Under the pieces are notes generated by a model. That model saw only the letters and a program-made list of their open reading frames with translations, did no database searches and was not told the origin of the DNA. Positions 2,293 through 19,654 of a stretch of 64,000 nucleotides of DNA are shown one piece after another. The first letter of the stretch is position 1. Every line of letters starts with the position of its first letter. Origin of the DNA: a virus; UHGV virus genome UHGV-2025275. One strand, written 5' to 3'. Both the position numbers and the translations under genes were made by a program.

Positions 2293-2293
2293 A

Positions 2294-3002: not shown

Positions 3003-3326
3003 TTATTGCAGTCCATTTTTCACGCCATAAGCGGCCAAACCCAAAAGCAGTACGGTGATCAGGAACGAGGTAATCTTGGAAATAATGCCCCCAAAGAACC
3101 CGCTTGAAATTGTGTCGAGCCGATTAAGAAGTTTGTCCAGGTTGGAATGCTGAATGCTATGTTGCGCCGGAGTCATATCACCAAAGTAAGTTCGCAGTTG
3201 ATCGTTGACCTCCTGACCAATATCGTCGCGAAGCTCCTTACTTAATTTGCCGACGACTTCTCGCGCAACAATTGCGGCAATGCGCTCAACCTGCTCTGGC
3301 GTCACGCCTGCCATCTCGTTTGACAT
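3003..3326 (-). CDS. Holin-like small membrane protein with a single C-terminal TMD
   Basis: 107 aa from MSNEMAG..., with a GGAGG RBS directly upstream. The track ORF begins 4 codons earlier with M-E-E-D-M, giving two in-frame Met codons 4 codons apart. C-terminal ITSFLITVLLLGLAAYGV. It is the first gene of the lysis cassette. Confidence 0.35.
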   Translation of the reverse strand: MSNEMAGVTPEQVERIAAIVAREVVGKLSKELRDDIGQEVNDQLRTYFGDMTPAQHSIQHSNLDKLLNRLDTISSGFFGGIISKITSFLITVLLLGLAAYGVKNGLQ

Positions 3327-3384
3327 GTCTTCCTCCATGAATAAGTCAAATCGAATGGCGAATTTATATCATAAATTAAAAATT

Positions 3385-3412
3385 AATAGTAGGTAAGTGC
3401 TTACCTACTATT
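3385..3412. repeat. Dispersed palindrome family copy (AATAGTAGGTAAGTGCTTACCTACTATT)
   Basis: Near-perfect 28-bp palindrome between the tail fiber stop and the holin start. Family consensus is ATAGGTAAGTACTTACCTAT. Confidence 0.8.
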
Positions 3413-3425
3413 ATGATTAACTAAA

Positions 3426-4859
3426 TTACTCCTGAATGGCAGTAACCAAATCTGCGTCGAGAGCTGTTTGATTTACCTTAAGGATATCTCCCGCTTCGGA
3501 TGAATGAAGTGTATTCTCCAGTGATTCAACTCGTTGTAGCAGTACCTTAACAGTTGCCAGCATATCCATCATGAGCACGTTATTGTCCAATTGCAGGCGA
3601 TCGTCATTTACTTGCATGCCGTTCTTCATGTACGAAGTGTGCACCTGCTTAACATATTGAGGATCAACTTCCTGTGCCTGTTGAGCGACAATCCCTCTGC
3701 GAACTCTGCTCAGCTCATCATCGTTGTAGATAAACGTCACTAACTCAAGCTGACGAATGCGATCAACAGACAGCTGACCGTCAGTAGGTTCAATGTCATG
3801 CTTTAACCGCGCATCTGACGTCCCTTGAAATTGAACATTCCCATTCTGGCTACTGTAAATCCTGCCGCCAGGTAAGAACTGCCAGTACTGGACATCCTGC
3901 GAATAACCGCGAAGCATGACGACCAGTCGATGGTTGGTTCCGACCTGTTCCTCAAACCAGATACCTCCCGCCCCAGAGTCGCCATTCCCGTCCGCGCCCC
4001 GCGTGTTTAATCTCCACGTGCTCCTCGGGGTGGCGATGATATCTCCCACTGCTGGTGAACCGTCAGATGATAAACGGCATGTAAAGCCGTCGCTATAAGC
4101 TGAGTTGTACAAAGTGCAAGCACCATACATACCAGTACCTCCACGTACACGTAGCCCCGGAGTAATGGATAGCGCCACATCTTCTGTATAGATCCTGTGC
4201 GTATAGTCAGCCGTAGAATTGTTATGATGAAAGTCAATGAATGGCGTAGCAGCAGAAAGCTCAATGCTCCCGGCATCAATAGCAGTGAACTTCGTGGCAC
4301 TATCCTTTCGCAAAATTTGGCCTGAAGCCGTAATGTTGGCACTGAACGTAACGCCCTTACTGAACGTCTGAGTCTGTGTGAACGTGTTTGCGACGCTCGT
4401 TTTCGCCGCTGCGTTCAGCGAGTTGCTGAGAGCCGCAAGATCAGACGCTTTCGCCATTCCTGAAACAGCAGGAACAGTCACAGATGCACCTGTTAGAGGA
4501 TCTGTCATCGTAATATCGCCACTTCCAGTCAGTGCGGTAGACCATCCCTGGACAACGTTACGCCAAAGGGTGAATGCGCTGGCTAGTTGGTTCGCAAAAG
4601 ACGATGTACTGGCTGTTTCTGATGTGATAATTCCATATTTCGCACCAGAAAAAGCTGTTGTGATGTTTCTCGTCAAAGTCAGTTGAGTGTCATTATTAAC
4701 AGATTTGATGGCATACAGATCTGCACTTCCATTGCGATAAATGACAAGAATCGACCCCTCTTGAATACCAAGTGCAGCCTCCGACCACTTGGTGGAAATA
4801 CCAGTAACCTTTGTCTGGTTTGCTGCACCTGTAACGGTGCCAACTTCGTACATTGCCAT
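3426..4859 (-). CDS. Side tail fiber with a C-terminal intramolecular chaperone (peptidase S74-like) domain
   Basis: 477 aa from MAMYEV..., with an AAGGA RBS. The C-terminus contains SDARLKHDIEP, the hallmark of autoproteolytic chaperone domains of tail fibers and endosialidases, and ends in a coiled-coil tail. Confidence 0.7.
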   Translation of the reverse strand: MAMYEVGTVTGAANQTKVTGISTKWSEAALGIQEGSILVIYRNGSADLYAIKSVNNDTQLTLTRNITTAFSGAKYGIITSETASTSSFANQLASAFTLWRNVVQGWSTALTGSGDITMTDPLTGASVTVPAVSGMAKASDLAALSNSLNAAAKTSVANTFTQTQTFSKGVTFSANITASGQILRKDSATKFTAIDAGSIELSAATPFIDFHHNNSTADYTHRIYTEDVALSITPGLRVRGGTGMYGACTLYNSAYSDGFTCRLSSDGSPAVGDIIATPRSTWRLNTRGADGNGDSGAGGIWFEEQVGTNHRLVVMLRGYSQDVQYWQFLPGGRIYSSQNGNVQFQGTSDARLKHDIEPTDGQLSVDRIRQLELVTFIYNDDELSRVRRGIVAQQAQEVDPQYVKQVHTSYMKNGMQVNDDRLQLDNNVLMMDMLATVKVLLQRVESLENTLHSSEAGDILKVNQTALDADLVTAIQE

Positions 4860-4911
4860 AATTACATTCCTTGTTATTTTAATTGGCGGCTCTTGAAGAG
4901 CCGCCTGAAAC

Positions 4912-7900
4912 TTAAGCCAAAGAGATGGAGCCGGTTGTCCTGTACATGGAGATAACCCCTGTAAATCGGAACTGCCCGCTATCGCCACGATTAGGCCACT
5001 GGATCGTGATATTCTGCGTTTGGCCGTAATTTGATGCCGGTATACGAATGGAGAAAATTGAAGTTTCAAAATTTTTACCTTCGTTACCTGAATCAAATGT
5101 CCATACAACTGTTTCATCAACGCGGATTGTTACGTTTTGACGCCAAACCTGCTGAATAATAATAGACCCGTTAAACACCATACGACGCTCAAATGGCATG
5201 CCCTGCACAGTAGCTATAGGATACCGAGTACCTGATGATGTATCGGCTGTAGAAGGCCAGTTTTTAACAACACGGTCGGTCATTGTCACAACATCACCAA
5301 CAATTTTATTAGCTTGCACTGTGCCAAGCACAGTGCAGTTCTCATTAATAGTCACGTTGTTAAGTACGCCAGTATTTGCGTGAACTTCGCCTCTGATATA
5401 TACATTACTGAATCTGGAACGACCATCTTTGTTGATAAACCACGTAGGATATCCATCACTTTCACGACTATCAGAACTAATTTCTTGCGCGATTTTCGCA
5501 TTGGTGATGGAGCCATCCTTAATCACAGCGGCATTCATGTAGGCAACGCCATTTTCCACAACAAATGGTGTGGTAGTGTTTCCGTTAGAGGTATTGATTA
5601 AGCCGAAGCGATCAGCCTGAACCAGAAACTGGCTCTGCAAATTTTTGCCATCGATACCTAAAGCGATACCAGCAGCATACTTTTTACCGTTGCTGTTGGT
5701 TTCCATTTTGACCATCCAGGTGCTATTAACGTTGCCGTTTTCAACAACCGTTTTCTTCAGCTCCTGCAGCTCGGCAGACTGGCCTCCTACCTGGGCCGTT
5801 AAATTCGTTTGCTGCTGAGACAGCGCACTAATCGTTGTGGCCTGAGTCTGCTGAGTTGATTTAATTGCCGCCATCGAAGTGGTGGCGTTATTCAACTCCG
5901 TCTGGTTCTTGATGTTTGCCGATGCCTGCGCATCAATTTGCGACTGCAAGCTGGTATTCAGCGACGACTGCGTTTTCTCGTTGTTGGTGATGGTTTGCGC
6001 CATCTGATCAACCTTCGAAGACGCATCGTTCACCTGGGACGTCAAAGAGGACAGCTGAGACGCCTGGGATGTCACCTGCCCTTCTACATTGGTAACACGT
6101 GAGGTAAGGCTGGTGAGCGCGGATGCGTTCGCATTAGCCGAATCTTTAGCCTCTTTTGCGTCGGTGATATCGGTGACAACAACGTCATCGATATACAGAT
6201 CATACCCCGGTGTACCAGTGCCAGTTGTGCCGCGGGTAGATACCCAAAATGCGCCGCGAGTGTGGCCAGCGGCTACACGGAGCGTACCGGTGAATTTCTT
6301 CCATGCGCCTCTTGCACCCAATGCGGCTTCATTGATAGTGATTGCCGTCGGCCAGTTATTGTTGTTGGCAGCGTTTTGGGTCTGCAAACCAACGAGCGTT
6401 GACCACCCAGAGGATGGCGACTGATCTGCCGGCATCATCGCCCAGAGTTCAATGCGGAATACCGCATTTTCACGCAGAGCAATCCACTTACCGATGGTTT
6501 TATCGCTGTTTCCGCCCTCACCGGCGCCGCGGGAAACACGCAACGACTTCGTTCCGCTTCGTTTCTGAGAGCTGACGACGACCGCACGCGAGCCGCTGAT
6601 CTGCTGGTTTTCGGAGTACGTCTCCAGAGAACCATCAAACCACGGGTTGCTCCCCATCGCCTGAACAGTACTCAAAGAGTTTTTGAACGAAGTTGTCTGG
6701 CTGCTCTGGGTTTCAATTTCTTTCTCGTTCTGCGTGACGCGATTCGTTAATGCCGTTAACGCAGCCGCATCAGCTTTCTTCGAAACATTTGTGTTTGTGG
6801 TAGCAAGGTCATTCTTAAGTTGCGTAACCTGGCTGCCCTGGCTGGTGATGTCATTCTCTGTCTTGGTCACACGACTATCGAGCTTAGTGATCGCGCTCGA
6901 GTTCGCCTGAGTTTCAACAGAGTCGGTCACATCGACGACATAAAAATCATCAAAGTACATCGCGCCGGCTGACAAGAAAGCAGTGAACTGAACGTCAGCA
7001 AGGACATCCTTTGTCGCCTTCCATGTCCAAGACACCTCCTGCCAGTTAGAGGTGAACGGGCCATAAGCCTTACTTGCGATCAGGCCATTACCGTCCGCCA
7101 CACGGAATTTTGTATTGTCGGTCGACTGAATGGTGGTATTAGGGTCCTGCTTTGCCCAAATTCCAATTTTGTACGACCGATCCTTCTTGAAGGAGATCTT
7201 CTGGCCTACGCCTGCAGAACCACCCGCTGCTAGTTTGGCGGCTTTGGTGCCAAGATGTGGAACCTGCAGCGTTGCCACCGTGGCAATACCGCTCCAACCA
7301 GTGTAGCCCTCCGTACCACGCTCAAAAGACGGGTTTACGATCAGGTTACCGGGGATCTGGCTTGCTGCATCCACGCTGGCGTTACTGGACGCAAGGCTGT
7401 TTTCCAGCGCTGTTGTCGAGGAGCTCAGGGAGTCAATATTATCCCCTTGGGTCTTCACTGTATTCTGGAGCGTGGTAATTGCAGATGCGTTCGCATCAGC
7501 CTTCATCATCACACCACCAGCGGCGCCCAGCCCCATCATTACCCCGTTCACAAACTCGACTGAGGTCGAAATGTGGGCGGTGCCGTCGCCACCGGTTGGC
7601 GCACGCAGTTCCAGACCATCGCCCGGCTTCATACCTTTGCGGCCAAGGAGAATGTAGGCGCCACGATACGGCAGAGAGTTAACGACTTCGGAAGTGCCAC
7701 CAAGAGATTCCAGGGCAGACAACACCTTACCTCGGTTGCCAGTTGGCTCATCGAATGTCAGGACGCAAACGTAAGTCCCACTGGCCAGTGCCTCGATATC
7801 AGCCGACATCGTGGCGCCATTATTCGCGCTGCCAAAGACATCGTATGTTTTGGAGGTCGCAATCACCGTTGATCCGTCGCTGTGTTTTGCAAAAGTGACC

Positions 7901-10900
7901 AGCGCCCAGCTGCGACCAGGAGTAAACAGGTTCTTGCCGCTTTCATCAAACACCCCATGGGTAACGCTATTGCCATTACCCCGTGCGGTTACAGTAAACA
8001 CAGTGCGACGGTTCATCGAGGCCTGCAGGCTGGTAATGCTGCTGTTCGCTGCGGTTAAATCGTCACCCTGAGATGTCACCGTGTTCCGGAGATCCTGCAA
8101 TGCTGAAGCATCAGCTTTCTTGGCAATGTTGTTCTGAGCTGTCGACAGCCCGTTTTCCAGCGATGTGGTGCGATTACCGATAGAGCTTATGGAAGTGCCC
8201 TGCTGATTCACTGTCGTTGTCAACAAGTCCACAGCCGACGCGCTGGCGCTATCAGCCGGAGAGTCGTTCCAGTCGGAAACAACGTTACCTACCTCAAACT
8301 TCGGGCTGTTGATGTACACCGTCTGGTCTTTGGAGGTATTGCTCTCGATACGGCACAGAATCAGGCGCTTGGTGCCCGTGGTAGGTGTCTGTTTCCACTT
8401 AACCCAGTAGCGGGCCCATGAAGTGGTCAGCGTGAACTGCGCACGGCCATCACTGTTGTTACCCTTCGCACCCTGGCTGGTCTCGATAGACGTTGTAGTG
8501 TTCGGATTGTAGAAGAACGCCGTCATAATCTGGCCAGCAACACCGCCTTTCGCATAGAAGCTGTAAACGTACTCACCTGCATCGACCGGCGACTCAAGCG
8601 TGATTTCCCGCAAATCCCTGTAACCGGAGCCGGCTTTTACAGTTGCGCCAATTACCGCGTTACCACGATACGTGTCGCTGGTAACGTTCAACCAGCCGGT
8701 CATATCGCCAGAGTTCTTAATCAGGTTTGTACCGCCAACAGAAATGGCATCAACCTTGTTGTTCAGATTCGTGACAGAAGAACTCGTTGAGTTAATGTCT
8801 TTTTCGGTCTGGGTAACACGGTTGGTCAGTGCCGTCAGAGCATTGGCGTCCGCTTTTTGAGCAACGTTTGCATTTGTTGTTCTCAAATTATTCTCAAGAT
8901 TGGTAGTACGTGTACCAATGCTGGAGATATTCTCCCCCTGCTGATTTACCGTAGAGGTCAGCGAATCAACCGCTTTCGCCGTAGCATCGAGAGAATCCTG
9001 AACTTTGGAGGAGTCGGTTACGTTCCGCAGATGCCAGTCGGTCACATACCAGACGGTGCCGAACGGGCTGGACTGGTTGATTTGCAGGAATGGACGGAAG
9101 AAACCGCGATCGACAATTCCCTGATTAATTTTGAAACGCCAGGTTACTCGCTGCCATGTGGCCGACGCCTTGCGGTTGCCGCCAGATGACAGAGGCGCGC
9201 CCACGCTGCCGCTTGGCCGTGTTGCGGTTCCGAGATACAGGTTGAAATCAGCGGAGCCGGTGCCACACGCGACGAGAGCAGACATTTCATAGACATCCCC
9301 CAATGTCGCCGGAATAGCAGCAAAATTTGGGTGATGGTCGCGAGCCGCAATGCGTGCAACATAAGCGTATGGGCAATTGGCTGGCACGCCCTCAGACGAG
9401 CTGGAAACCACAGTGAAGCCCATCTGACTAAACTCTGGGTCAAATGTCGGGTTGCTAATCAAATCGCCACTTGTCGCATTCCCTGCGCGTACAGATGAAT
9501 TAAGCGCAGTGATACTGCTATTCGCGGAGGATAAGCCCGACTCTGTTTGATCGACGCGCCCGGACAACACGCTTAAAGCGCTCTGATCCGCTTTTTTACT
9601 GACGTTGTTATTGGTCGTTGCCAGGTCATTTGTCAGTTTGGTGATGCTGTTACCCTGACTGGTGATCTGGTCACCCTGTTGGGAGACGGTCGAGTCCAGT
9701 GTCGAAATCGCATTGGCGTTAGCATCTGCTGTACTTTGCGCATTGTAGGCATCAGTTACTTCGGTAATGACCAGGTCATCAATAAGGAATGAGTTTCCCG
9801 CCTTAACGCTGCTAACGTTAGGAATAGAAATCCTCACCATTGCCTGCTTAATACCGCTCTTCGTTGATTTCAGGTAACCAGAAACCTTCGTCCATTGAGC
9901 TGTAGACAGATCTTTCGCCGCTTTGGTTACTGCTGGCCACTGCCAGGAGTTGTCCTGATACTGGAGCGACAAGCCAATGGAGATCTGCGCATTCTCGGCC
10001 ATAGCGGTGCTCTTGGCATCCAGCTTAACCCAGCATTCCATATAGAAGACTGCGTTATCGCGAACCTGGAACCCGCTGAAAATGTGATTATCGCTGTTAT
10101 CAGTTGCGTTAGCGTTGTAATCATTCGGACGCGTCACACGGATGCACTTACTACCGCCATGCGAGTCATCAGTGGTCACGATAACGCGATTATTTGATAG
10201 ATTATGGCCAACCGCGTAGCTTTCAAAAGTGCCATCAGGAAGCAGATTGGCGCCGCGTTTGGATTGCTGGTTCAGAGAGCTGCTGAGCGACGTAATGTTG
10301 CTGTTCGCCGCCGTCAGACCGGACTCCGTCTTCTCTACCCGACCTGTCAGCGTAGTGACTGCCGACTGATCGGCCTTTTTCGCGATGTTTGCGTCAGCGA
10401 CTTCGAGGTCATTGGTCAACTTAGTGATGCTGTTGCCCTGACTGGTGATCTTGTCACCCTGCTGCGTCACCGTGCTCGACAACGTAGACAGCGCATCGCT
10501 ATTAGCCTTGATCTTCACCTCATCCGTGATATCAAAGACCTTAAAGGTATCAACCCAGATTTCGGCATTAGCCGGGTGCGCGTAAAGCTTAAAGTTCTGA
10601 CCATCAGCGTTAGAGGCAGTAAGCCCAGTCTCCCAGGTAATGGTCTGCCACTCACTGGTGAGTGTGACGTTTTTATCTTCATAATTGCTGTCGGTCTGGC
10701 CGATTTTATTCTGGCGCCGGATCAACATGTTCATCGCCCCGGACACGCCCTTGGCTTTAACCACAACACGATATTTGCGCTGACCATTAAGCGGCAGCGG
10801 CTTGTTGTTGTTGGAGAAGATGCCTGGGCTGGTCGTGGTCGTCCGGTTCAGCTTAACCCCAGCCTTACCATCACCGAAGTTGCCGAAAGCGACGCCCGCC

Positions 10901-13900
10901 GGATACTGGATATCCCAAGCAGTTGCACCCTGCAGGAAATCGTAGTTCGGGATCAGGTTGTCACCGGCGTTTCTGGCAGCGGTCAGGGTATTATTCAGGT
11001 TCGTGATGCTGTTACCCTGGCTGGAAATCGTATCCCCCTGCTTGGAGACCGTATTTTGCAGCGTAGACAGCGCCTGTGCATCTGCCTTATTCGCCAGATT
11101 AGCGTTGGTCTGTTCGAGGCTGTTTCGCAGATCAGTAACGCTCTGCGAGGTGCTCGTGACGCGATCACCTACGGTGCTGACGTTTGAGGTGACGGCGCTA
11201 ATGGCATTCGAAAGCGCGTTCATCCCAAGAGCAGAATTCAGCTGGGCTACTTTCTCGGACAGTTTAAAACCGAGGTTAATGTAAGCCTGACCAGTCCATT
11301 GGTTCACCAGGAACTCAACCGTGCTCCAGCCAGCTTTCAGATCAAAGCTAACCGTATTCCAGCTCGCATTACCAAAGGCAGCCCTAACACCGTTCACGTA
11401 CACGGCGCCCGTATCATCAAAAACACGAGCCCCTGGTGCCATAGTGATGGTGGTATCAGCATTGACCTTCACGAAGGCTTTGTAATGCGCGATCACGTAA
11501 CTGCCGGCGCTCGCAAAGTCCAGTTTTGCAGCGTCAGGAACCTCCTCGATCGAGGTTGGCGCCTTACCGTTGATATCGCTAAAGGTCGGCTCAATAGTGC
11601 TGTTTGCCAGTTGTACGTTGTATACGCTACGCACCCACATGTTCTGGCGGCCGTTAACTATCTGGTTTGACAGCGAAGTGATGCTGTTGGAGTTAGACGT
11701 AATGTCTTTTCCCTGCTGGGTCACGGTACTGTTGAGGGTTGATAACGCATTGGACGTCGCATCAATCGCCTTCTCATTGCTCACGTCAACGCAGAAGACG
11801 TCATCGAGATACATATAGCCGGAAGCGACACTTGCGCGCAGAGACACAACCACGCTCGCGGTTTTGGCTGGCGTATACTCGCCGCTAATAAGCGCCCAGT
11901 TAGTCGACAGCCCGGCGCCAGTGATCGGGATATCCTTTATCGGCGTCAGATCTGCGTTTCGAAGGCTAATTTTGTTGTTGCCGGCATTATTGATCGCGAA
12001 GTCAGCGGATTTGCGAACCCATGCGCCGATACGATAAGTCTTGCCGGCCTGCAGCTCGACCGTTTGGTTGCAGCCCGAGTCACCGCCAGAGGCCAGTTTG
12101 CCCGCCTGGATGATGTATTTACCCGATTTGGGGTTCTGGGCCTCCAACAGAGTCCAGCCGACATACTCCCAACCTTCGAAACCACGTTCAAAAGAGTTGT
12201 TTTTGAGCATGTTGCCGATGATCGCTTTCGAGGCATCCGCATCAGCATTGGCGTTATCCAGCGAGTTTGACAGGCTGGTGATGCTCTGGGACTGGCTGGA
12301 GATCTGATTTTCGGCAGCAGTTACGCGGTTTGTCAGATTAGTCACAGCTGAGGCGTCAGCTTTGTTCTTGATGCTGTTCTGCATCGAAGTGATCTGCTGC
12401 CCCTGGCTGGTGATGGTGCCCTCAACAGACGATACCCGAGAGGTCAAAGCATTGGTGGCACTGGCGTTCGCCTCAATCGCCAGAGCATCAGTGACGTCAA
12501 CAAAACCAACATCATCGAAGTACTGAGAACCGGTTTTGAGAGAAGACATGATCGATACGTCAACTTTACCGGTCAGCGTCGCCTTCCAGGTATCAGAGAC
12601 CTCCTTCCATGTTTCATCTTTGGGCAGATTCTCCGGACGGATCGGAATCTCTTTGAGCAACGTGGCCGCGCCAATACGCAGTTTGTTGTTGCCAGGGCTG
12701 CTGATCACCGCATCAGTGGTACACCGCACAAAAGAGGACAGCTTGTATGTCCGCCCTTCGACGACGCTTACAGATTGCGTGATTTGCACCGTGCCGGCGG
12801 CGCAAACAAGAATTTTGCTACCAGAATGGGGCGCACTCGCCTTGATAACACTGGATACGCTGTTCCCTGCAGACCACCCTGCCAGGTCACGCTCAAAGGA
12901 GGCGTTAACCAGCAAATTGCTCGGGTTGCTTTTGGCAGTATCGGTATCGCTCTGGATATCGCTCAGCGAGTTATTCAGGGTGGTGATGCTTTCACTCTGG
13001 CTGCTAAGGGTTTTATCCTGCTGGGTTACGGTCGACTGCAGACCCGTGATCGCCTTGCTATTCGCAGATACACCAGACTCAACACTTCCTACGCGATTGT
13101 CCAGCGTAGACAATGCCGCACCTTGTGATTTAAGGGTGTTGCCCTGCTCTTCAACCTTCTGGGAAATTGTCTGTACTGCACTGGCATCGGCCTTCTGGCC
13201 AAGGCTTGTTTGCAACCCGGTAATCTTGCTTGCCTGGGAAGCTTGTTCAGTGGACAGCGTATGCAGCTCTTCTGCAACAGAGGCTTTGTTTCTGTTGAAT
13301 TCAGTCTGCAGGGATTCACGCGCACTCGCTTCCGCAGCATCGGCAGTGATACGAGCATTTTTCTCCTGATAGATCAGACCGGAGCGAATGTCGTCCAGAT
13401 TTCCGCTTTCAGATGAACCGCGGATTTGTGCAGCCAATGTGCTGCGCGCCTGCGCTTCGGCGGTATCTGCATTCGCACGAGCCTGCTGCTCTTCCTGTAA
13501 CGCGGCCATGCCTGCGCCCGGCGTCGGTCGACCAACGGCGATCCAGTCGAATAACAGGTAATTGTCCGCATCCTGACCCGAAGTGAAATCGAAGCGGAAA
13601 CGACGAATCGTTGTCGAATCCCGCCACTCAATGTCGTGCAGGGTCAGAATCGCAATACCCTTGTCGTCGTATTCCGGCTCATTGATAACCACGGAGCGAC
13701 CAGCATTCCAGCCAGTTTCATCAGCGCCGATCCAGAACATTCTGGCGTTCCAGGTTGGGTTGCCAACCTTTTTAACGCGCATCTTAATGAAACGATAAGC
13801 ATGGGCATCGATCGTCAATCCGTTAGGGGAACGACAGGTTGAGGTCGGATTGTTCGCTTTCAGCCAGCCATCGCTGGTGACGCTCATTGGCGTGTAGCCA

Positions 13901-16900
13901 TTATCATCTTCCGTCCAGCCTTCGGCGTCCTGGTCGAAATACCAGATTTTCAGAGAGTCAAACTGTTCCCCTGTGCCAGCGGCAATCTGCGAGATCTGTC
14001 GCGCGAGGTTTTCGTCACCGGAGGTCACAACCTCAGACAAGCTATCGATAGAGGTTTTCAGCTCATTCTTCGCGCTCAGCAGTTGGTCGGCCGCTTGCTT
14101 GGCTGCATCATTAACATCTGCAATACGGTCATTCGTCTCTTTCTGAATGGCCGCAGTCAGATCTTTGCTGGTCTGGGACAGCGACGTTGTCAGTGATGAC
14201 TGCGCATTCTTAATCTCCTGCGACAGAGCAGCGTCGCCGTCTTTAATCGACTGTTTTGCAGCTTCAATTTGGCTGTTTACGTTGGAGATGTTGGTATTGA
14301 TCGTCTGGTTGACCGTATCGATATTGTCGACAATTGTCTGATTGACGGTATCAATGTCCTCTTTCAGCGACTGATTGACAGAGTCAACCTGCGCCTTAAT
14401 TTCGGAGGAGGTTTGCGCAAGGTCGTTTTCAACTTGCTGAATAGACTCGTTGACTGAGTTCTGAACCTCGCCAATGGCGTTGTCTACCGCCTCCTGAGTG
14501 GCTTTGCTGTCGATTTCGTCGAGCAGCTCTTTGCCGAGTTCAGAAGATGTGATCTTGTCTTTCAGGAAAGACAATACGTCGCGAGTGGTGGCCTCTGTAC
14601 CGAGGTTCGAGTTCGGCTGGCCTACCATCCCACGTTTGTTTACCGCACGAATCCAGTAATACCAGGTCTCGTTGTCACCCAGCCCAGCGTGAGTGAAAGT
14701 CGTTGTGGCGGCCTGAGCAATGAGTGTCGCGGTGTCCAGCTTATTTGTTTTGGACGCATACACGTTGATCTGCGCGAGGTCGACTGAATCAGGGTTAACC
14801 CAATTCAATACCACGTTACGATAATCCCCCACCGCGGTCAGTGATGTGGGCGCCCCTGGCGGCGTCATCGTGCCTTTTACCTGATAGACAGCAGTAATAA
14901 TCTCGGATTTTTTGCCGCCGAAGGAAACGGAATACAGCTGGAAGTCATATCGCCCATTTTCGGCAACATTGACGATTTCATATTGTTCTTCCGTGGCGCG
15001 GGCAGATTGCCAGTTGGAGACGTTGCCCTCGTCGGAGCGGCGCCAGCTGACCCAGTATTCTGGTGATTTACCTTCCCAGGCAAGCATCAGCTTCACGGAC
15101 AAGTTGCCCGGACTGGACAGATAGGTGCCTTCTGAGATGACCAGATTGCTCGGTTTGGAATATGTGGGATCAAGAACCGTCGTATTTTCTGGAACGAGCG
15201 CGGCCCCGTTATCAATCGCCTGGTACTTAGATGCATTGTTCTGCACCACCGTGATATCAAACGACCCCGGGGTTTCACCTTGCGCGATAGCGACAACGCG
15301 CGCCCGCATTGGAACCAGGTCTGGTTCGGTGATCGTCCAGACGCCATTCGCTACTGGTTGATCGGCTGTGGCCAACGCCGTCTTGAAGGTAACTTTAGTG
15401 ATGTTGTCGCCGGTCTCGTTGATGTCTCGCTCAACGATTTTGCCTTCCTGATTGATGATACGGATGAAGCTACCGCTCTTTTTCAGAGAGACAGGTGCAT
15501 CGAGGGTGATGCTGTTTTTGGTGAAAGAGACAATGCGACCGGAATTGCGTTTGCCGGCACGATATTTGTTCTGGATCAGAACGGTTTCGCCCGGCATCAG
15601 GAACGAGGCGTCTAGGCCCGCGGTAAAGGTGATCATGTCTGACTCCATACGCGCGGTATAGAGCAGCCACAAACCTACACGATGAGCCTGACCACGGCTG
15701 GTGCATCCGAACGCAACGGCCTCGGTCTTGCGCTCCCCGTATCGGGCCATCGCTTCCTGATCTTCAACATACTCAACGTTCTGCTTATAGCCGTCTTGTT
15801 TGTTGTTATAAGTGATCAGCGCTACGGACGGCCGGTCTTTTCGAGCAGAGCCTTTATAGGTAAACAGGCCATCTTTTACGTTTGCGTTGGTAAACAGCAT
15901 GACAGGATCAGACGGGCTGTCCTGCATGATATTCACCATGCCACCAGCCCAGAAAACCATGCCACGGAAAGCACCGGCAATATCCTGAATCAGACGATAA
16001 GCGTCCTGACGACTGGTGATCTGGGTGTTGATTGCAAAGCGTTTTTCTTTGCCGCCAAAGCCATCATCAACCTCTTCGTCGCAGTAGCGACCGATCTGAT
16101 AAAGCTGGCCAAGGTCAATCATTGACTCCGAAACAAATTTGCCGAGGCCATAACGAGCATTGGTCAGCAGATCGAACAGAATCCAGGCAGGGTTGGAAGA
16201 CGACAGAAGTTTAAAGGTTCCATCCCAAACGCCGTTATAAGTGTTCGTGTTTTCATCATAATTCGAAGGCACACGGATTTTGAGGCCACGGATAAGATAC
16301 GAACGTGACGGCATAGAGCTACCAAACTGCTCAGAGTTAACCTTAAGGCCAACCAGAACGGAGTTCGGGTAGTTCATTGGGGTGTCAACGATCTCACCGA
16401 TAGAGTCGACCCAGGTATCGTTAAAGAGATACTGATCGTTGCTGTCGGCGGAGAGACGAAGCACGCGCACTTTATAGGCACGCCCAGGCTTTGGAAGCTG
16501 GATTTCGTAACTGCGGTAGTAGACACCAGTCTTTTTCGCAGTCAGCGTCACGTCAGAGCTGCTCTCACCTGCAGCAATCACGTCATAGAAAGAGCCATTG
16601 CCGTTGGCCAGCTGGAACTTAAACTGGACCGAAGTACCGTTTGTGTCCCCTGTTTTCTTGTCAATGTTCCGCAGCGACGGGAACTTCATGATCACTCGGA
16701 CACGATCAGCGTCGTCGTTATCGATGGCGACCGTAACCGCATTTGTGGTTTTCAGCTGTGTGTTAACGGCCTTTGGCGTTTCGACAAAATCGAAACCAGG
16801 CATCGGGCTTTGGTCTTGCGAACCATCCCGGAAATCCCAAGTTACACCGGAACGGTTGAATGAACCGTCTTCGTTCTGTAGCGCCACACCATCGACGAAG

Positions 16901-17091
16901 ATAGATTTAGCACCGTCAATCAACCCACCAACAACACCTTCCCCGAGCAGATCGAGGATAGACGCCATGGTGCGAGAATTAACGGTATCATCCGCTTCAA
17001 CTGGTGTACGGCTTGAGCCTGAGCTCTTTTTGCCGCCCGCTCCCGCAATCAGGAGGGGCAATCTCTTTTTCTTGAACTGATCCATGTTCAA
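4912..17091 (-). CDS. J: Giant central tail fiber / host-specificity protein, lambda gpJ homolog, 4059 aa
   Basis: Roughly the first 1000 aa and last 270 aa align convincingly to lambda J from memory (e.g. SVLVGLKVNSEQFGS, YNGVWDGTFK, CTSRGQAHRVGLWLL, and the C-terminal ANKIVGDVV... block). The middle roughly 2700 aa consists of about 9 tandem modules of a coiled-coil stalk (TLxSTVTQQGDxITSQGNSITxLxNxL) plus a roughly 150-aa beta-sandwich domain with N-x-x-F-E-x-G-W ... YxDDVxVxDVTD signatures. Confidence 0.9.
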   Translation of the reverse strand: MNMDQFKKKRLPLLIAGAGGKKSSGSSRTPVEADDTVNSRTMASILDLLGEGVVGGLIDGAKSIFVDGVALQNEDGSFNRSGVTWDFRDGSQDQSPMPGFDFVETPKAVNTQLKTTNAVTVAIDNDDADRVRVIMKFPSLRNIDKKTGDTNGTSVQFKFQLANGNGSFYDVIAAGESSSDVTLTAKKTGVYYRSYEIQLPKPGRAYKVRVLRLSADSNDQYLFNDTWVDSIGEIVDTPMNYPNSVLVGLKVNSEQFGSSMPSRSYLIRGLKIRVPSNYDENTNTYNGVWDGTFKLLSSSNPAWILFDLLTNARYGLGKFVSESMIDLGQLYQIGRYCDEEVDDGFGGKEKRFAINTQITSRQDAYRLIQDIAGAFRGMVFWAGGMVNIMQDSPSDPVMLFTNANVKDGLFTYKGSARKDRPSVALITYNNKQDGYKQNVEYVEDQEAMARYGERKTEAVAFGCTSRGQAHRVGLWLLYTARMESDMITFTAGLDASFLMPGETVLIQNKYRAGKRNSGRIVSFTKNSITLDAPVSLKKSGSFIRIINQEGKIVERDINETGDNITKVTFKTALATADQPVANGVWTITEPDLVPMRARVVAIAQGETPGSFDITVVQNNASKYQAIDNGAALVPENTTVLDPTYSKPSNLVISEGTYLSSPGNLSVKLMLAWEGKSPEYWVSWRRSDEGNVSNWQSARATEEQYEIVNVAENGRYDFQLYSVSFGGKKSEIITAVYQVKGTMTPPGAPTSLTAVGDYRNVVLNWVNPDSVDLAQINVYASKTNKLDTATLIAQAATTTFTHAGLGDNETWYYWIRAVNKRGMVGQPNSNLGTEATTRDVLSFLKDKITSSELGKELLDEIDSKATQEAVDNAIGEVQNSVNESIQQVENDLAQTSSEIKAQVDSVNQSLKEDIDTVNQTIVDNIDTVNQTINTNISNVNSQIEAAKQSIKDGDAALSQEIKNAQSSLTTSLSQTSKDLTAAIQKETNDRIADVNDAAKQAADQLLSAKNELKTSIDSLSEVVTSGDENLARQISQIAAGTGEQFDSLKIWYFDQDAEGWTEDDNGYTPMSVTSDGWLKANNPTSTCRSPNGLTIDAHAYRFIKMRVKKVGNPTWNARMFWIGADETGWNAGRSVVINEPEYDDKGIAILTLHDIEWRDSTTIRRFRFDFTSGQDADNYLLFDWIAVGRPTPGAGMAALQEEQQARANADTAEAQARSTLAAQIRGSSESGNLDDIRSGLIYQEKNARITADAAEASARESLQTEFNRNKASVAEELHTLSTEQASQASKITGLQTSLGQKADASAVQTISQKVEEQGNTLKSQGAALSTLDNRVGSVESGVSANSKAITGLQSTVTQQDKTLSSQSESITTLNNSLSDIQSDTDTAKSNPSNLLVNASFERDLAGWSAGNSVSSVIKASAPHSGSKILVCAAGTVQITQSVSVVEGRTYKLSSFVRCTTDAVISSPGNNKLRIGAATLLKEIPIRPENLPKDETWKEVSDTWKATLTGKVDVSIMSSLKTGSQYFDDVGFVDVTDALAIEANASATNALTSRVSSVEGTITSQGQQITSMQNSIKNKADASAVTNLTNRVTAAENQISSQSQSITSLSNSLDNANADADASKAIIGNMLKNNSFERGFEGWEYVGWTLLEAQNPKSGKYIIQAGKLASGGDSGCNQTVELQAGKTYRIGAWVRKSADFAINNAGNNKISLRNADLTPIKDIPITGAGLSTNWALISGEYTPAKTASVVVSLRASVASGYMYLDDVFCVDVSNEKAIDATSNALSTLNSTVTQQGKDITSNSNSITSLSNQIVNGRQNMWVRSVYNVQLANSTIEPTFSDINGKAPTSIEEVPDAAKLDFASAGSYVIAHYKAFVKVNADTTITMAPGARVFDDTGAVYVNGVRAAFGNASWNTVSFDLKAGWSTVEFLVNQWTGQAYINLGFKLSEKVAQLNSALGMNALSNAISAVTSNVSTVGDRVTSTSQSVTDLRNSLEQTNANLANKADAQALSTLQNTVSKQGDTISSQGNSITNLNNTLTAARNAGDNLIPNYDFLQGATAWDIQYPAGVAFGNFGDGKAGVKLNRTTTTSPGIFSNNNKPLPLNGQRKYRVVVKAKGVSGAMNMLIRRQNKIGQTDSNYEDKNVTLTSEWQTITWETGLTASNADGQNFKLYAHPANAEIWVDTFKVFDITDEVKIKANSDALSTLSSTVTQQGDKITSQGNSITKLTNDLEVADANIAKKADQSAVTTLTGRVEKTESGLTAANSNITSLSSSLNQQSKRGANLLPDGTFESYAVGHNLSNNRVIVTTDDSHGGSKCIRVTRPNDYNANATDNSDNHIFSGFQVRDNAVFYMECWVKLDAKSTAMAENAQISIGLSLQYQDNSWQWPAVTKAAKDLSTAQWTKVSGYLKSTKSGIKQAMVRISIPNVSSVKAGNSFLIDDLVITEVTDAYNAQSTADANANAISTLDSTVSQQGDQITSQGNSITKLTNDLATTNNNVSKKADQSALSVLSGRVDQTESGLSSANSSITALNSSVRAGNATSGDLISNPTFDPEFSQMGFTVVSSSSEGVPANCPYAYVARIAARDHHPNFAAIPATLGDVYEMSALVACGTGSADFNLYLGTATRPSGSVGAPLSSGGNRKASATWQRVTWRFKINQGIVDRGFFRPFLQINQSSPFGTVWYVTDWHLRNVTDSSKVQDSLDATAKAVDSLTSTVNQQGENISSIGTRTTNLENNLRTTNANVAQKADANALTALTNRVTQTEKDINSTSSSVTNLNNKVDAISVGGTNLIKNSGDMTGWLNVTSDTYRGNAVIGATVKAGSGYRDLREITLESPVDAGEYVYSFYAKGGVAGQIMTAFFYNPNTTTSIETSQGAKGNNSDGRAQFTLTTSWARYWVKWKQTPTTGTKRLILCRIESNTSKDQTVYINSPKFEVGNVVSDWNDSPADSASASAVDLLTTTVNQQGTSISSIGNRTTSLENGLSTAQNNIAKKADASALQDLRNTVTSQGDDLTAANSSITSLQASMNRRTVFTVTARGNGNSVTHGVFDESGKNLFTPGRSWALVTFAKHSDGSTVIATSKTYDVFGSANNGATMSADIEALASGTYVCVLTFDEPTGNRGKVLSALESLGGTSEVVNSLPYRGAYILLGRKGMKPGDGLELRAPTGGDGTAHISTSVEFVNGVMMGLGAAGGVMMKADANASAITTLQNTVKTQGDNIDSLSSSTTALENSLASSNASVDAASQIPGNLIVNPSFERGTEGYTGWSGIATVATLQVPHLGTKAAKLAAGGSAGVGQKISFKKDRSYKIGIWAKQDPNTTIQSTDNTKFRVADGNGLIASKAYGPFTSNWQEVSWTWKATKDVLADVQFTAFLSAGAMYFDDFYVVDVTDSVETQANSSAITKLDSRVTKTENDITSQGSQVTQLKNDLATTNTNVSKKADAAALTALTNRVTQNEKEIETQSSQTTSFKNSLSTVQAMGSNPWFDGSLETYSENQQISGSRAVVVSSQKRSGTKSLRVSRGAGEGGNSDKTIGKWIALRENAVFRIELWAMMPADQSPSSGWSTLVGLQTQNAANNNNWPTAITINEAALGARGAWKKFTGTLRVAAGHTRGAFWVSTRGTTGTGTPGYDLYIDDVVVTDITDAKEAKDSANANASALTSLTSRVTNVEGQVTSQASQLSSLTSQVNDASSKVDQMAQTITNNEKTQSSLNTSLQSQIDAQASANIKNQTELNNATTSMAAIKSTQQTQATTISALSQQQTNLTAQVGGQSAELQELKKTVVENGNVNSTWMVKMETNSNGKKYAAGIALGIDGKNLQSQFLVQADRFGLINTSNGNTTTPFVVENGVAYMNAAVIKDGSITNAKIAQEISSDSRESDGYPTWFINKDGRSRFSNVYIRGEVHANTGVLNNVTINENCTVLGTVQANKIVGDVVTMTDRVVKNWPSTADTSSGTRYPIATVQGMPFERRMVFNGSIIIQQVWRQNVTIRVDETVVWTFDSGNEGKNFETSIFSIRIPASNYGQTQNITIQWPNRGDSGQFRFTGVISMYRTTGSISLA

Positions 17092-17101: not shown

Positions 17102-17713
17102 TTACAGTTGGTCTATGGTGATTGAAGAACTCACAATCTGTGAGCCAACTAAAATTTCCTCGCCGTAATTAAGCTGAACCGGGTTTCCCTGGTTGCTGGT
17201 GTTTTGAGGCCCATCGAAGTAAAACGAATCCGTGTTATCCGCCTGTCTGACAGACGCATTTGATGCCTGCGGCGAAATCAGCATGGACACACCGCCCATC
17301 ATCAATGACATCCCTCCCATCACCAGCGCGGAAGACGCACCAAAAGTCAGCCCTGAGGCCAGAGCGCCGACAGCGATCATCGCGGCGCCCACGAAAGTAT
17401 GGAACCACCCAAACGCCTTACCACCGCTGCCACGTGGTACGGGAGTAATGCGGATTTTTGCGATATTTTCCGACTCGCCCATCATCTGGTATTCGGTGTC
17501 GTCCATTGACCACTTGTGGCCCTGCTTATTTGTGACCTGGATGTGGTACTTATCGAAGTGGTTACGGTTACGCTTAATCCAGGCTTTAAAGCCCGGGCGA
17601 TTCGCCTCAATCAAATCGATGGCTTGTTTGGTGTTGCGCACCTTCAATTTCCAGTGGCGGCCAAAGTTCTTTGCCATCGCACCGCCGAGCTGAACATGAA
17701 CTAATTCAGACAC
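17102..17713 (-). CDS. I: Tail assembly protein I (lambda gpI-like)
   Basis: 203 aa located between K and J. Shows the lambda gpI-like layout of a ubiquitin-like N-terminal region followed by a C-terminal glycine-rich hydrophobic segment (GAAMIAVGALASGLTF). Confidence 0.7.
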   Translation of the reverse strand: MSELVHVQLGGAMAKNFGRHWKLKVRNTKQAIDLIEANRPGFKAWIKRNRNHFDKYHIQVTNKQGHKWSMDDTEYQMMGESENIAKIRITPVPRGSGGKAFGWFHTFVGAAMIAVGALASGLTFGASSALVMGGMSLMMGGVSMLISPQASNASVRQADNTDSFYFDGPQNTSNQGNPVQLNYGEEILVGSQIVSSSITIDQL

Positions 17714-18498
17714 GTCTCGTCTCCCTTGAGTAAATCCCTGTGACGCAGGTGATGCGTCGTGTGCTTCTGATACATCCCACCGTAATAAGCCCGACAGCTG
17801 AGACGGTCGATCTGGTGATGCATGATCATGCCGTCGCCGATGTATACCGCGCAGTGATCTGGCATTTTCCCGTACTGGATGAAGAAGATGTCGCCGCGCT
17901 GGGGTTCCGTCCCCGGCGCCATGCGGACAAGTCCTTCATTTCGATAGTTCTGGTCGAGGATGTCGTTGTCCCCCGTGTACCAGGAAGGAATATGCAGGTG
18001 GGGGTTTGCATTCAGCTCAACGTCAAATTCACGCTTTAGGTAATCGCGGCACAGCATCCAGCAATCAAACACACCGAATACGTATGGGCGCCCCAGGTAG
18101 GGCATCTCAAAACCACACGGATAAATGACGTTCATTTCGCTAAAGTGGAATGGCATATCGCTTTCCACATTTTTGCGAATTGCCAGAATCATCCACGGTA
18201 ATTCCGTCGCCTCGCACCCGGAGCGATCCGGGTCTGACGCCTCTGCGCTGCGCTCAACGTGAGAGTGCCAAATGGCGATCACTTCCCCAGCATCTTCGGC
18301 CGCAATAATGTCACTGGCACGCATGACAAAATCCTCACGTGGCGTTTCAGAGACATTCATCGCTTCCATAAAGCGATATTTCTCACCCTGTGTGCGCACC
18401 AGAAAGCCACACGCTTCATTCGGGTAACGTTGGATAGCGCAGCGATAGATATCCTGCATGACTTCTGAGCCCAGCTCAGGTAACGTCTGGTTACTCAT
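17701..18498 (-). CDS. K: Tail tip protein K (MPN/JAB plus NlpC/P60 domains, lambda gpK-like)
   Basis: Start taken at MSNQTLPELG..., overlapping the L stop by 8 nt. NEACGFLVRTQGEKYRF and GVFDCWMLCRDY align to lambda K's ESCGFVVSTPEGERYF and GVTDCYTLFRDAY. The longer track ORF (to 18654) begins inside L. Confidence 0.8.
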   Translation of the reverse strand: MSNQTLPELGSEVMQDIYRCAIQRYPNEACGFLVRTQGEKYRFMEAMNVSETPREDFVMRASDIIAAEDAGEVIAIWHSHVERSAEASDPDRSGCEATELPWMILAIRKNVESDMPFHFSEMNVIYPCGFEMPYLGRPYVFGVFDCWMLCRDYLKREFDVELNANPHLHIPSWYTGDNDILDQNYRNEGLVRMAPGTEPQRGDIFFIQYGKMPDHCAVYIGDGMIMHHQIDRLSCRAYYGGMYQKHTTHHLRHRDLLKGDETCLN

Positions 18499-19192
18499 AT
18501 CGTGTCGCCCCAATAAATCCGCCAAAATGAATAACGCCATTCGCGAAGTAGTTGCGACGAGCATTACAGGCGTCGTAACGCTTGGTGCAGTAGTCGGCGC
18601 CGGCCAAAGAGGTTTGCTGGTTGTTTTTGTCGAAATATGGGCCGGTGTAGCCACACTCTGTTCCGCGATATTTCCACGGGCAGCTGTTTTTGATGATCTG
18701 ACGATACGGCAGTTGAACGCCCATCAGATCTAAGACGCTGGACAGCTCGAATTCGACATACTGGTGCGTCTCCAGGGTCTTCTGTTCGACGAACCACATT
18801 TCATCAGCAAAATGCTGACTTGGGTCTGCGGTCGGGTTTCCATCCGGAAAGTTCACCGCGTCCAGAAAACGTGCCAGCGTCATCTTGCGAATGATTTTGC
18901 AGCCAATCAGATCGTCATTGGCCTGCAGCTCGGCAGAAATTACACCGTCGTAGTTGGAAACCTGAATCTTTGGACGAGGAAGTGTTCCCTGACCGCTTTT
19001 ATCAAAGCCAGACGCTTTAATTGGCCACGGCTCATAGGAAACTCCCTGCCAGACAATTGGCTGGCTAAGCCCGTTGGTGCCGGCATGGAAATACAACTTG
19101 CCGCCGGAGGTTGTCACCGACATATCCAGCTCGAACAACTCAATGAGCGCAGAAGGCGATAAACTCTGAATATCAGCTCTAATACCCATCAC
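18491..19192 (-). CDS. L: Minor tail protein L (lambda gpL-like)
   Basis: 233 aa; VWQGVSYEPWPIKASGF, ARFLDAVNF and CPWKYRGTECGY match lambda L, including the cysteine cluster. Confidence 0.85.
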   Translation of the reverse strand: MMGIRADIQSLSPSALIELFELDMSVTTSGGKLYFHAGTNGLSQPIVWQGVSYEPWPIKASGFDKSGQGTLPRPKIQVSNYDGVISAELQANDDLIGCKIIRKMTLARFLDAVNFPDGNPTADPSQHFADEMWFVEQKTLETHQYVEFELSSVLDLMGVQLPYRQIIKNSCPWKYRGTECGYTGPYFDKNNQQTSLAGADYCTKRYDACNARRNYFANGVIHFGGFIGATRYE

Positions 19193-19210
19193 TTCATCCT
19201 TGAAAAACTC

Positions 19211-19231
19211 AACGTCACATCCTGTGACGTT
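19211..19231. repeat. Perfect inverted repeat AACGTCACA tcc TGTGACGTT in the M-L intergenic region
   Basis: Read directly: 9-bp arms with a 3-bp spacer. It is adjacent to palindrome-family copy 19244-19265. Confidence 0.7.
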
Positions 19232-19243
19232 GATATATGATAC

Positions 19244-19265
19244 TAGATAAGTAATTACTTATCTA
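19244..19265. repeat. Dispersed palindrome family copy (TAGATAAGTAATTACTTATCTA), a perfect 22-bp palindrome
   Basis: Read directly. Confidence 0.85.
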
Positions 19266-19275
19266 TAGTCGCAAG

Positions 19276-19611
19276 TTAAGACTCAAAAACCTGTCTAAAT
19301 GTTGCCGTAAGCACTTGATAACCGGGGTAACGCTTTACCGTATGGCTGTCACAAACCACGATAATTGCTTTGCCTCTTGGGTTAGTCCAAATAAATGACT
19401 CCACCCCAGCGCGGGCAGTCAAAAAGTCATCAACGTCGTTTACCACGTCATGGCTACGGGTGAACGTGAGAGACCACTCTTCTTTAATCCGATTGAGCCC
19501 CTGCGACTGGCGCTGCTCGTAATCGTCGCCGTAGTTCAGCACGGTCACGTTAGGCTTTACGGTTTTCTCAGACTCATAATCTGGATACCAATTAAATACT
19601 TTCCTCGACAT
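19276..19611 (-). CDS. M: Minor tail protein M (lambda gpM-like)
   Basis: 112 aa from the ATG at 19611 (MSRKVFNWYPDY...), with an AAGGAAG RBS. Size and position match lambda M (109 aa). The longer track ORF overlaps H. Confidence 0.75.
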   Translation of the reverse strand: MSRKVFNWYPDYESEKTVKPNVTVLNYGDDYEQRQSQGLNRIKEEWSLTFTRSHDVVNDVDDFLTARAGVESFIWTNPRGKAIIVVCDSHTVKRYPGYQVLTATFRQVFES

Positions 19612-19654
19612 ATCACTTCCTTGTGATGGCCGCCCGCTAAGGCGGCCGGCTTTA

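Follow-up and report, generated by a model that had tools for sequence, protein, structure and literature searches.

A lambda J-like tail protein with one large insertion of stalks and lectin-type modules in an SSU5-like phage-plasmid

What kind of protein is encoded by a 12.2-kb reading frame in a tail-tip operon, and what might it do for the element that carries it? This question is raised by the UHGV virus genome UHGV-2025275, analysed here as a stretch of 64,000 nucleotides (the window, to which all coordinates refer unless another locus is named), in which one uninterrupted frame of 4,059 codons starts at a TTG on the minus strand (4912..17091). Both the length and the internal repetition of this frame, pointed out in a first-pass annotation made from the sequence alone, were confirmed: an all-against-all comparison of overlapping fragments of the protein gave 55 paralogous segment pairs (23–62% identity, E<1e-4), and the motifs quoted in that annotation recur several times each—five times for Q[QK]G..I[TS]S, five for N.SFE-type starts and five for DD.x.x[DE][VI][TS][DN]-type ends. 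Homologues were searched for with individual segments as queries. The start, originally placed at the TTG (17091; 4,059 aa), is probably the ATG that forms the third codon (17085), two codons downstream, which yields a complete gene at 4912..17085 encoding 4,057 aa plus the stop codon. The same ATG was used to annotate "Gp21" (AP014953.1) on the K. oxytoca plasmid pKO_JKo3_2, a protein of 4,057 aa with 99.5% identity. The open reading frame (ORF) is real and intact, and its product is referred to below as giant J.

As judged from sequence comparison, giant J is a homologue of lambda J with one large insertion. The homology had been proposed in the first-pass annotation, and it is borne out by Pfam J domains, by the alignment to the solved lambda protein and by the position of the gene in its operon. 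Residues 20–859 correspond to lambda J 3–836 (8iyk_J, E 2e-145) and contain FNIII-A_GpJ at 101–235 (108 bits) and Phage-tail_3 at 357–519 (109 bits), so that the hub and FNIII domains can be assigned to aa 1–835 (14581..17085, minus strand, as are all segments of the gene given below). The correspondence resumes at residues 3771–3970 (lambda J 843–1035), with Phage_Tail_Tip/DUF1983 (PF09327) at 3776–3906 (131 bits) marking the central straight fibre (aa 3776–3970, 5176..5760; lambda J ~848–1035). These limits replace the earlier estimate of roughly 1,000 N-terminal and 270 C-terminal residues, and the insert between them measures ~2,940 aa or 8.8 kb of DNA—the "2.7 kb" first given for it must mean ~2.7 thousand residues. 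In lambda, the α-helical shaft spans residues 809–861 (53 residues) and the distance from the FNIII domains to the tip is 29.7 nm; upon LamB binding, shaft residues 841–861 convert to β-strands and the FNIII gate opens (PMC11101478). Because the alignment ends at lambda residue 836 and restarts at 843, the whole insert lies inside this lambda-type shaft. The last ~87 residues (aa 3971–4057, 4915..5175), a putative terminal receptor-binding domain, show neither similarity to the LamB-binding domain of lambda nor a Pfam match, and a comparison of the C-terminal tip with phages of known receptor gave no informative match.

The insert resolves into 12 stalks (S0–S11; 1,164 aa) that alternate with 11 globular segments (D0–D10; 1,776 aa). 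All 11 are lectin-type β-sandwiches of about 150–175 aa, falling into five families: seven resemble carbohydrate-binding modules (CBMs) of the CBM4/9/16/22 type, with one each CBM11-like, PA14/GH2-N-like, GTA-spike-fibre-like and ILEI-like. The CBM-type β-sandwich was correctly foreseen in the first-pass annotation, which had counted about nine modules of one type; the actual array is larger and less uniform, with four modules of other folds. Five modules exceed the Pfam cut-off for CBM_4_9 (PF02018, 25.9 bits), namely D1 (aa 1384–1536, 12478..12936; 35.7 bits), D2 (aa 1619–1778, 11752..12231; 37.1 bits), D4 (aa 2037–2193, 10507..10977; 27.0 bits), D9 (aa 3240–3393, 6907..7368; 38.6 bits) and D10 (aa 3474–3646, 6148..6666; 26.4 bits). 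D9 can also be aligned over its whole length with a solved structure, CBM16-1 from C. polysaccharolyticus Man5A (2zew, E 9e-11). D5 (aa 2275–2450, 9736..10263) is CBM_4_9-like with a score below the cut-off (23.4 bits) and a paralogue of D10 (E 5e-13), and D6 (aa 2534–2695, 9001..9486), which has no Pfam hit and a weak link to D9 (E 5e-5), was identified as a divergent CBM jelly-roll through AlphaFold2 (AF2) and Foldseek. The AF2 model of D6-S7-D7 had a mean predicted local distance difference test score (pLDDT) of 80.4 and displays two all-β domains with two long helices between them. Foldseek searches with the D6 and D7 models retrieved CBM22, CBM4-2 and CBM16 structures (probability 1.00, target-normalised template modelling scores of 0.5–0.6) as well as CBM61 and phage adhesion proteins such as Tuc2009 BppA and the central fibre of mycobacteriophage Douge (5e7t, 8zdp)—the CBM-type outcome that the first-pass annotation had expected of such a check.

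The remaining modules belong to other families. D7 (aa 2780–2948, 8242..8748) is a jelly-roll that marginally passes the NCBIfam GTA_spike_fiber cut-off (NF048003; 37.6 against 36 bits), with D6 (22.7) and D8 (17.3) below it. D8 (aa 3022–3195, 7501..8022) is of the ILEI/FAM3 type according to its sequence profile (PF15711, cut-off 27 bits), scoring 42 bits alone and 36.7 bits within the full protein. D3 (aa 1806–1950, 11236..11670), homologues of which were found in Klebsiella only, resembles GH2 N-terminal sugar-binding and PA14 adhesin lectin domains in a medium-confidence AF2 model (pLDDT 71.5, predicted template modelling score 0.71), on which the fold call is based; its profile gave just a marginal sialidase match against PDB sequences (E ~1e-3). 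Finally, D0 (aa 1040–1192, 13510..13968) is a homologue of residues 482–629 of the R4C megatron protein (E 1.3e-14), a domain named carbohydrate-binding in the roseophage R4C structure and described there as CtCBM11-like in topology (PMC10276861). J proteins of 1,426–2,103 aa (P0132, P0057, P0081 and P0099) also have D0 (EQFD..IWYFD..EGW ... DWIAVGRPTPGA), at roughly the same place. The module looks like an older component that is fixed in this J subfamily and not a member of the mobile array.

The stalks that separate these modules contain no proline and are rich in S, T, A, N and Q, with a hydrophobic periodicity of 3.5–3.67 residues and a consensus that reads as a 3-4 spacing with polar core positions; those of ~80 aa each comprise two ~34-aa units. 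At the proximal end, S0 (aa 836–1039, 13969..14580) has the same starting point as the lambda shaft and shows homology to the coiled coil in the solved fibre 9l9p (query 17–1044 = chain 8–1022). At the distal end, S11 (aa 3647–3775, 5761..6147) is heptad-like with a period of 3.5, and its homologue in the solved fibres 23gd and 9l9p is the coiled coil that leads into the straight fibre; the lambda alignment restarts near its end (aa 3771 = J 843). S1 (aa 1193–1383, 12937..13509) is long and Ala/Gln-rich. Further along, a KAD motif sits at the centre of the two-unit stalk S2 (aa 1537–1618, 12232..12477) and occurs likewise in S4 (aa 1951–2036, 10978..11235), S5 (aa 2194–2274, 10264..10506), S6 (aa 2451–2533, 9487..9735), S8 (aa 2949–3021, 8023..8241) and S10 (aa 3394–3473, 6667..6906). 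Two stalks are short single units, S3 (aa 1779–1805, 11671..11751) and S9 (aa 3196–3239, 7369..7500), the latter with KAD at its start. In S7 (aa 2696–2779, 8749..9000), the AF2 model places two long helices with pLDDT ~90 and a break exactly on the motif (K2744-A-D).

KAD is the most conserved stalk motif, and all nine copies in the protein lie within stalks. Eight of the nine fit the register a-b-c-KAD-e-f-g-a, in which both 'a' positions are occupied by I, V or L (e.g., NN-I-A-K-KAD-A-S-A-L), and β-layers of this type have been solved in the trimeric coiled coils of OMP100 (IENKADKADV) and of a S. pyogenes prophage tail fibre (LQQKADKETV) (PMC4786415). The same paper defines such layers by an inserted nonad or hexad in the register abc-bbb-efga, its central β position being taken by a small hydrophobic residue. 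Taken together, the periodicity, the S7 helices, the KAD register and the trimeric state of lambda J argue for stalks built as trimeric α/β coiled coils interrupted by KAD β-layers. The earlier idea of a trimeric coiled-coil stalk thus stands in its helical and probably trimeric character, but not as plain heptads, since the period ranges from 3.5 to 3.67 and most stalks have a KAD motif in their middle. By analogy with the solved lambda trimer, and given the trimer-specific β-layer motif, giant J would be trimeric at the tail tip. If all stalk residues formed an extended coiled coil, the stalk alone would compute to ~172 nm, and the fibre might reach up to ~170–200 nm.

To place the gene in its biological context, we examined its distribution. 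At 95–99.5% identity, matches to the giant J gene occur in ten Klebsiella "phage" records (84–120 kb), in 15 of 5,426 complete E. coli genomes, where they always lie on plasmids and never on the chromosome, and in 419 PLSDB plasmids. Of the latter, 401 are from Klebsiella, and gene coverage reaches at least 80% in ~300. Full-length matches were confined to plasmids or 'phages' of 104–128 kb. In the annotated contexts of relatives, the gene order is TMP (tape measure protein)-M-L-K-I-J-side fibre, followed by holin and endolysin genes, ParA and a DnaB-like helicase, and the hubs of giant J and of the J protein of Salmonella phage SSU5 share 83% identity. On account of the plasmid-borne matches, the ParA, DnaB-like helicase and SSU5-like lysis neighbours and the hub identity, the element is classified from its sequence as an SSU5-like, IncFIB-type Klebsiella phage-plasmid, and the gene as its J.

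Comparison of these relatives also reveals how the array changes. Relative to the E. coli plasmid orthologue, nucleotide differences are overwhelmingly synonymous in stalks and modules alike—17 changes in S0, for instance, produce one amino-acid change—which indicates that the array is maintained by purifying selection. Internal DNA repeats of the gene are just 61–74% identical, long exact repeats are absent, and most PLSDB copies have the same length of 12.18 kb. Whole modules nevertheless come and go: pC250_2 (J of 3,602 aa) is devoid of D4 and D5, and in pJN2-26 (4,045 aa) D6 is replaced by an unrelated domain (16591–17079 of the pJN2-26 locus), which has a very weak CBM_4_9 signal (E 0.064), clusters with no other module and may represent a sixth module family. 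Phage 48ST307, with a hub only 32% identical, yet shares D5 (95%), D7 (95%), S8 and D8 (96%) at 95–97% identity in a different order. Since 48ST307 and phiKO2 have modules in common with giant J despite this 32% hub identity, whole modules move between unrelated Klebsiella phages. S1 is likewise 59–69% identical to the matching stalk in phiKO2-like fibres and was detected in 18 of the best 150 J representatives, with up to eight copies per protein. Hence the first-pass expectation of a hotspot for recombination and length variation was only partly right: modules are deleted, replaced and exchanged between phages, so the gene is a mosaic, but with diverged repeats and a mostly constant length it is no rapidly slipping, length-variable locus.

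The distal end follows a pattern of its own. Divergence from the E. coli orthologue jumps to 22–26% in the distal straight fibre and tip, the tips of relatives from K. pneumoniae share just 83–88% identity with the one encoded here, and plasmid matches stop at gene nucleotide 11,600, 11,621 or 12,180. This indicates, at the level of sequence, at least three exchangeable C-terminal cassettes of ~190 aa, with a swap junction within the straight fibre near aa 3,865–3,872 and the putative receptor-binding domain inside the swapped part. Two further observations concern related loci and their sampling. The 3,193-aa 'tail fiber protein' of 48ST307 (1939–13271) ends soon after its D8-S9 equivalents, lacks the straight-fibre and tip regions, and is followed by a separate 552-aa 'hypothetical protein'; J of this phage may be split or differently organised. 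In the databases, homologues of the modules are mostly 'partial' proteins on 0.3–2 kb contigs of Klebsiella draft genomes, and because short-read assemblies evidently break in this repetitive gene, variation of giant J is under-sampled in draft data.

Starting from this anatomy, we infer a binding role and a geometry, and consider it probable that giant J is the trimeric central fibre of an SSU5-like phage-plasmid, with an array that binds glycans multivalently and a tip cassette that binds the receptor. In such a trimer, the three copies of each module would splay out at each node and present 33 modules of five families per fibre. These could bind surface polysaccharide (capsule, O-antigen or similar) weakly and multivalently in early adsorption, thereby capturing the cell and letting the fibre work its way through a thick capsule. 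The central fibre might thus take over the early-adsorption role of the long side fibres of SSU5 and Cyrano; the lengths suggest a trade-off, since the J protein and the side fibre measure 1,385 and 1,260 aa in SSU5, but 4,057 and 477 aa in the present element. The exchangeable C-terminal cassette would then bind a terminal outer-membrane receptor and trigger opening of the tip as in lambda, and the array would evolve through gain, loss and exchange of whole modules via the conserved stalk sequences.

Several points weigh against this proposal. CBM-type folds can serve purely structural roles. In the D9/CBM16 alignment, the N-terminal aromatic motif is retained and the second ligand-platform region falls within an indel, and an attempt to derive CBM ligand specificity from this alignment was dropped for that reason. 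The array is also present in the 15 E. coli genomes, and therefore extends beyond heavily capsulated Klebsiella. The AF2 models are of monomers, from which trimer geometry and fibre length are extrapolated, and our search of the literature found no micrograph of SSU5-like phage-plasmid virions with giant J. The triggering step is the weak part of the scheme, because a lambda-like relay is hard to picture across a shaft of ~2,940 residues.

The same facts can be read in favour of a passive spacer, in which the array would be a length ruler or scaffold that brings the terminal receptor-binding domain across a thick capsule to the outer membrane, and the modules trimer-stabilising knots without glycan binding. 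A stalk that could span up to ~170 nm, a gene length strongly conserved across ~300 plasmids, purifying selection on stalks and modules both, and the lack of verifiable ligand-binding residues in the D9/CBM16 alignment would all suit such a device. However, five lectin-type families, several with members above the CBM_4_9, ILEI or GTA-spike cut-offs, would be odd for inert knots; the replacement of D6 in pJN2-26 and the exchange of modules at 95–96% identity are typical of specificity determinants; and an exact length is not required, because pC250_2 is viable without two modules. We therefore regard a purely passive array as unlikely.

A fold-switching fibre deserves somewhat less credence and is, in our estimation, a doubtful reading. 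Here, some or all of the stalks would pass from coiled coil to β-structure after tip binding, the fibre would shorten several-fold, and the tip would be pulled to the membrane while the trigger is relayed. In both lambda and the F7 pyocin, it is the shaft that passes the signal of receptor binding on to the FNIII gate and that refolds to β itself (PMC11101478; PMC12874032), and the array of giant J sits inside the very element that switches in lambda (841–861) and in the pyocin (163 residues). Moreover, S1 contains 12 matches to the switch pattern SxSxxMxxLxS where ~2.5 were expected (P<0.002; 8 forward and 4 reverse, with ~1.2 expected each), a weak enrichment occurs in S11 and S9, and the β-layers mean that the stalk would already be of mixed α/β conformation. 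Yet the eight short stalks (S2–S8 and S10) contain the pattern in no excess over expectation, AF2 renders S7 as confident helices, and S1 is distant from the β-prism seed, the nucleus of conversion proposed in the preprint on the pyocin (PMC12874032). Treating the stalks as hendecads or as copies of the F7 switch was accordingly dropped for S2–S10 on the basis of periodicity, consensus and the lack of enrichment in short stalks, with S1 and S11 kept as a lead. A bolder version, to which we would assign a slimmer chance still, is that the multiplied switching shaft acts as a spring or reel of ~170–200 nm: after capture by the modules and binding of the tip, S1 and S11 would be the first to convert, dragging the tip through the capsule. 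If true, this would amount to a contractile central fibre on a non-contractile tail.

It is very improbable that giant J is a tail enzyme that degrades polysaccharide, namely a depolymerase which digests the capsule and to which CBMs have been added. CBM4/9/16/22 domains normally accompany glycoside hydrolases, and such enzymes are among the Foldseek matches. Nevertheless, no catalytic domain was found across the 4,057 aa in Pfam, PHROGs and PDB searches, for which we rejected this reading; every globular segment is explained by a β-sandwich of ~150–175 aa, and the only enzyme-associated signature nearby is an S74 chaperone domain in the separate side-fibre gene. As for an assembly artefact or a decaying pseudogene with repeats mis-joined into a concatenation—a doubt raised in the first-pass annotation and nourished by short-read assemblies that often break here, by many homologues that are 'partial' proteins on 1–2 kb contigs and by a few records in which the gene is split into several ORFs (H22, H49 and H60)—the chance is negligible in view of the 12.2-kb frame without interruption, the ~300 independent, complete plasmid records that cover at least 80% of the gene at mostly equal length, the 99.5% identity to an independently finished plasmid, the mainly synonymous substitutions, and DNA repeats that are only 61–74% identical, which makes their collapse or expansion unlikely.

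Around the giant J gene, the tail-tip operon (17102..24193, minus strand) comprises, upstream, I (17102–17713), K/NlpC-P60 (17701–18498), L (18491–19189), M (19276–19611) and the tape measure gene (19655–24193; ~1,512 aa). Downstream lies a short side-fibre or spike gene (3426..4859, minus strand), whose 477-aa product ends in a Peptidase_S74 intramolecular chaperone domain. The J stop is separated from the start of this gene by 52 nt (4860–4911) containing a GC-rich hairpin, GGCGGCTCT-TCA-AGAGCCGCC, which has no T-run and was not called by the terminator scan. A second hairpin, after the side-fibre gene (3413–3384), has a 13-bp stem followed by a T-run and looks like the terminator of the operon. 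Elsewhere in the window, the region at ~54–58 kb has a GC content of 41% against ~51% elsewhere and encodes a 560-aa ORF (54901–56583, minus strand) whose GmrSD_N and GmrSD_C domains mark it as a type IV restriction endonuclease; it looks like acquired anti-phage defence cargo of the phage-plasmid. There is a second dip in GC at 40001–42000 (0.419), where an ORF of 216 aa (41514–42164, plus strand) has no Pfam match.

Knowing what this fibre recognises would matter in several respects. In clinical Klebsiella, IncFIB phage-plasmids with giant J are very common, and this genus is the source of 401 of the 419 PLSDB plasmids with a match. Phage-plasmids can reportedly carry resistance genes, and for this reason there is practical value in knowing their entry determinants. 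With 11 lectin-type domains and natural deletions, replacements and tip swaps, the family could serve as a source of glycan specificities or for the retargeting of phages and tailocins. It also poses a mechanistic question, namely how a receptor signal is relayed to the opening of the tip across a shaft ~55 times longer than that of lambda.

How exceptional, then, is giant J? The architecture had been called very unusual at first, which overstates the case. The PHROG 2589 "tail protein" profile, 3,686 positions long, scores 4,459 bits against giant J; gp21 of phiKO2, at 3,433 aa, has been in GenBank since 2004; and the hub has 10,675 relatives in a representative library. Among the best 150 of these, the median length is 1,451 aa, with 38 proteins of at least 2,000 aa, 13 of at least 3,000 aa, four of at least 4,000 aa and a maximum of 4,353 aa. 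Two unrelated giants with a hub identity of 46–47% likewise carry CBM_4_9 domains, and a structural search of predicted viral proteins with the CBM-helix-CBM unit gave 358 matches. Decoration with CBMs is, moreover, well established for the Tal, Dit and central-fibre proteins of siphophages (PMC7291167). Giant J is thus a large representative of a class of lectin-loaded J proteins that is known, annotated and fairly common, its sequence family being already in the databases. In the literature, we found no description of the domain anatomy of giant J; the new details are the domain map, the insertion point in a signal-relaying shaft, the β-layer stalk and the module traffic with phiKO2-like phages.

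Set beside known systems, giant J resembles lambda gpJ (PDB 8iyk, 8xcg–8xck) in its homologous hub, FNIII domains, straight fibre and operon position, and it is presumably also a trimer closing the tail tip. The difference lies in the shaft—53 residues within the 1,132 aa of lambda gpJ, against ~2,940 aa with 11 globular modules—and in the LamB-binding domain, which bears no resemblance to the last ~87 aa of giant J. The central fibre of F-type pyocins (F7 and F2; PMC12874032; PDB 25vf) is another J homologue with a coiled coil between FNIII and straight fibre, and 25vf aligns to the hub and the C-terminal part of giant J. In F7, however, the 163-residue coiled coil has no inserted domains and was shown to switch to a β-prism (PMC12874032), and its published switch pattern occurs in giant J only in S1 and, weakly, S11.

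Lectin-type jelly-rolls on tail-tip proteins are also found in the CBM-decorated devices of siphophages, such as 'evolved' Dit and Tal proteins, streptococcal Tal extensions, Tuc2009 BppA, Douge and the R4C megatron, where a role in binding saccharides of the host surface has been proposed or demonstrated (PMC7291167; PMC10276861). These devices differ in having one to a few CBMs and mostly Gram-positive hosts, and none has 11 serial modules in an enterobacterial J shaft. A parallel to the stalks is offered by trimeric autotransporter adhesins and the hyaluronidase fibre of a S. pyogenes prophage, which share the KAD β-layer in the register abc-KAD-efga (PMC4786415); in the adhesins, stalks also alternate with globular heads. 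Outside the motif, however, neither shows homology to giant J, and the adhesins are bacterial surface proteins, whereas the heads of giant J are CBM-type lectin folds.

Within its own phage-plasmid family, giant J shares the operon and a hub identity of 83–84% with SSU5, Escherichia phage Cyrano and a Cronobacter SSU5-like plasmid. Their J proteins, in contrast, measure 1,385–1,575 aa and would have a long coiled coil instead of the module array: the Cronobacter J (1,385 aa) was scanned and has no D modules, SSU5 (1,385 aa) is taken to be module-free from its equal length rather than a direct scan, and in Cyrano (1,575 aa), judged by length in the same manner, the array would not fit. The side fibres differ as well, at ~1,260 aa or more in SSU5 and Cyrano and 477 aa in the giant-J lineage. 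On the plasmid of Cronobacter malonaticus, we also observed sbmA, a peptide antibiotic transporter gene (20470–21663), directly after the tail fibre gene. Two architectural counterparts belong to a different group, namely gp21 of phiKO2 (AY374448, 3,433 aa), annotated as 'similar to lambda J protein', and the 48ST307 fibre of 3,193 aa, both from N15-like linear plasmid prophages with a hub only 32% identical and another order and number of modules. What unites them with giant J is a beads-on-a-string layout built from shared module families, at 46–69% identity in phiKO2 gp21: D0 is 46–47% and S1 59–69% identical, and D6, D7, D9 and D10 are 52–67% identical in phiKO2.

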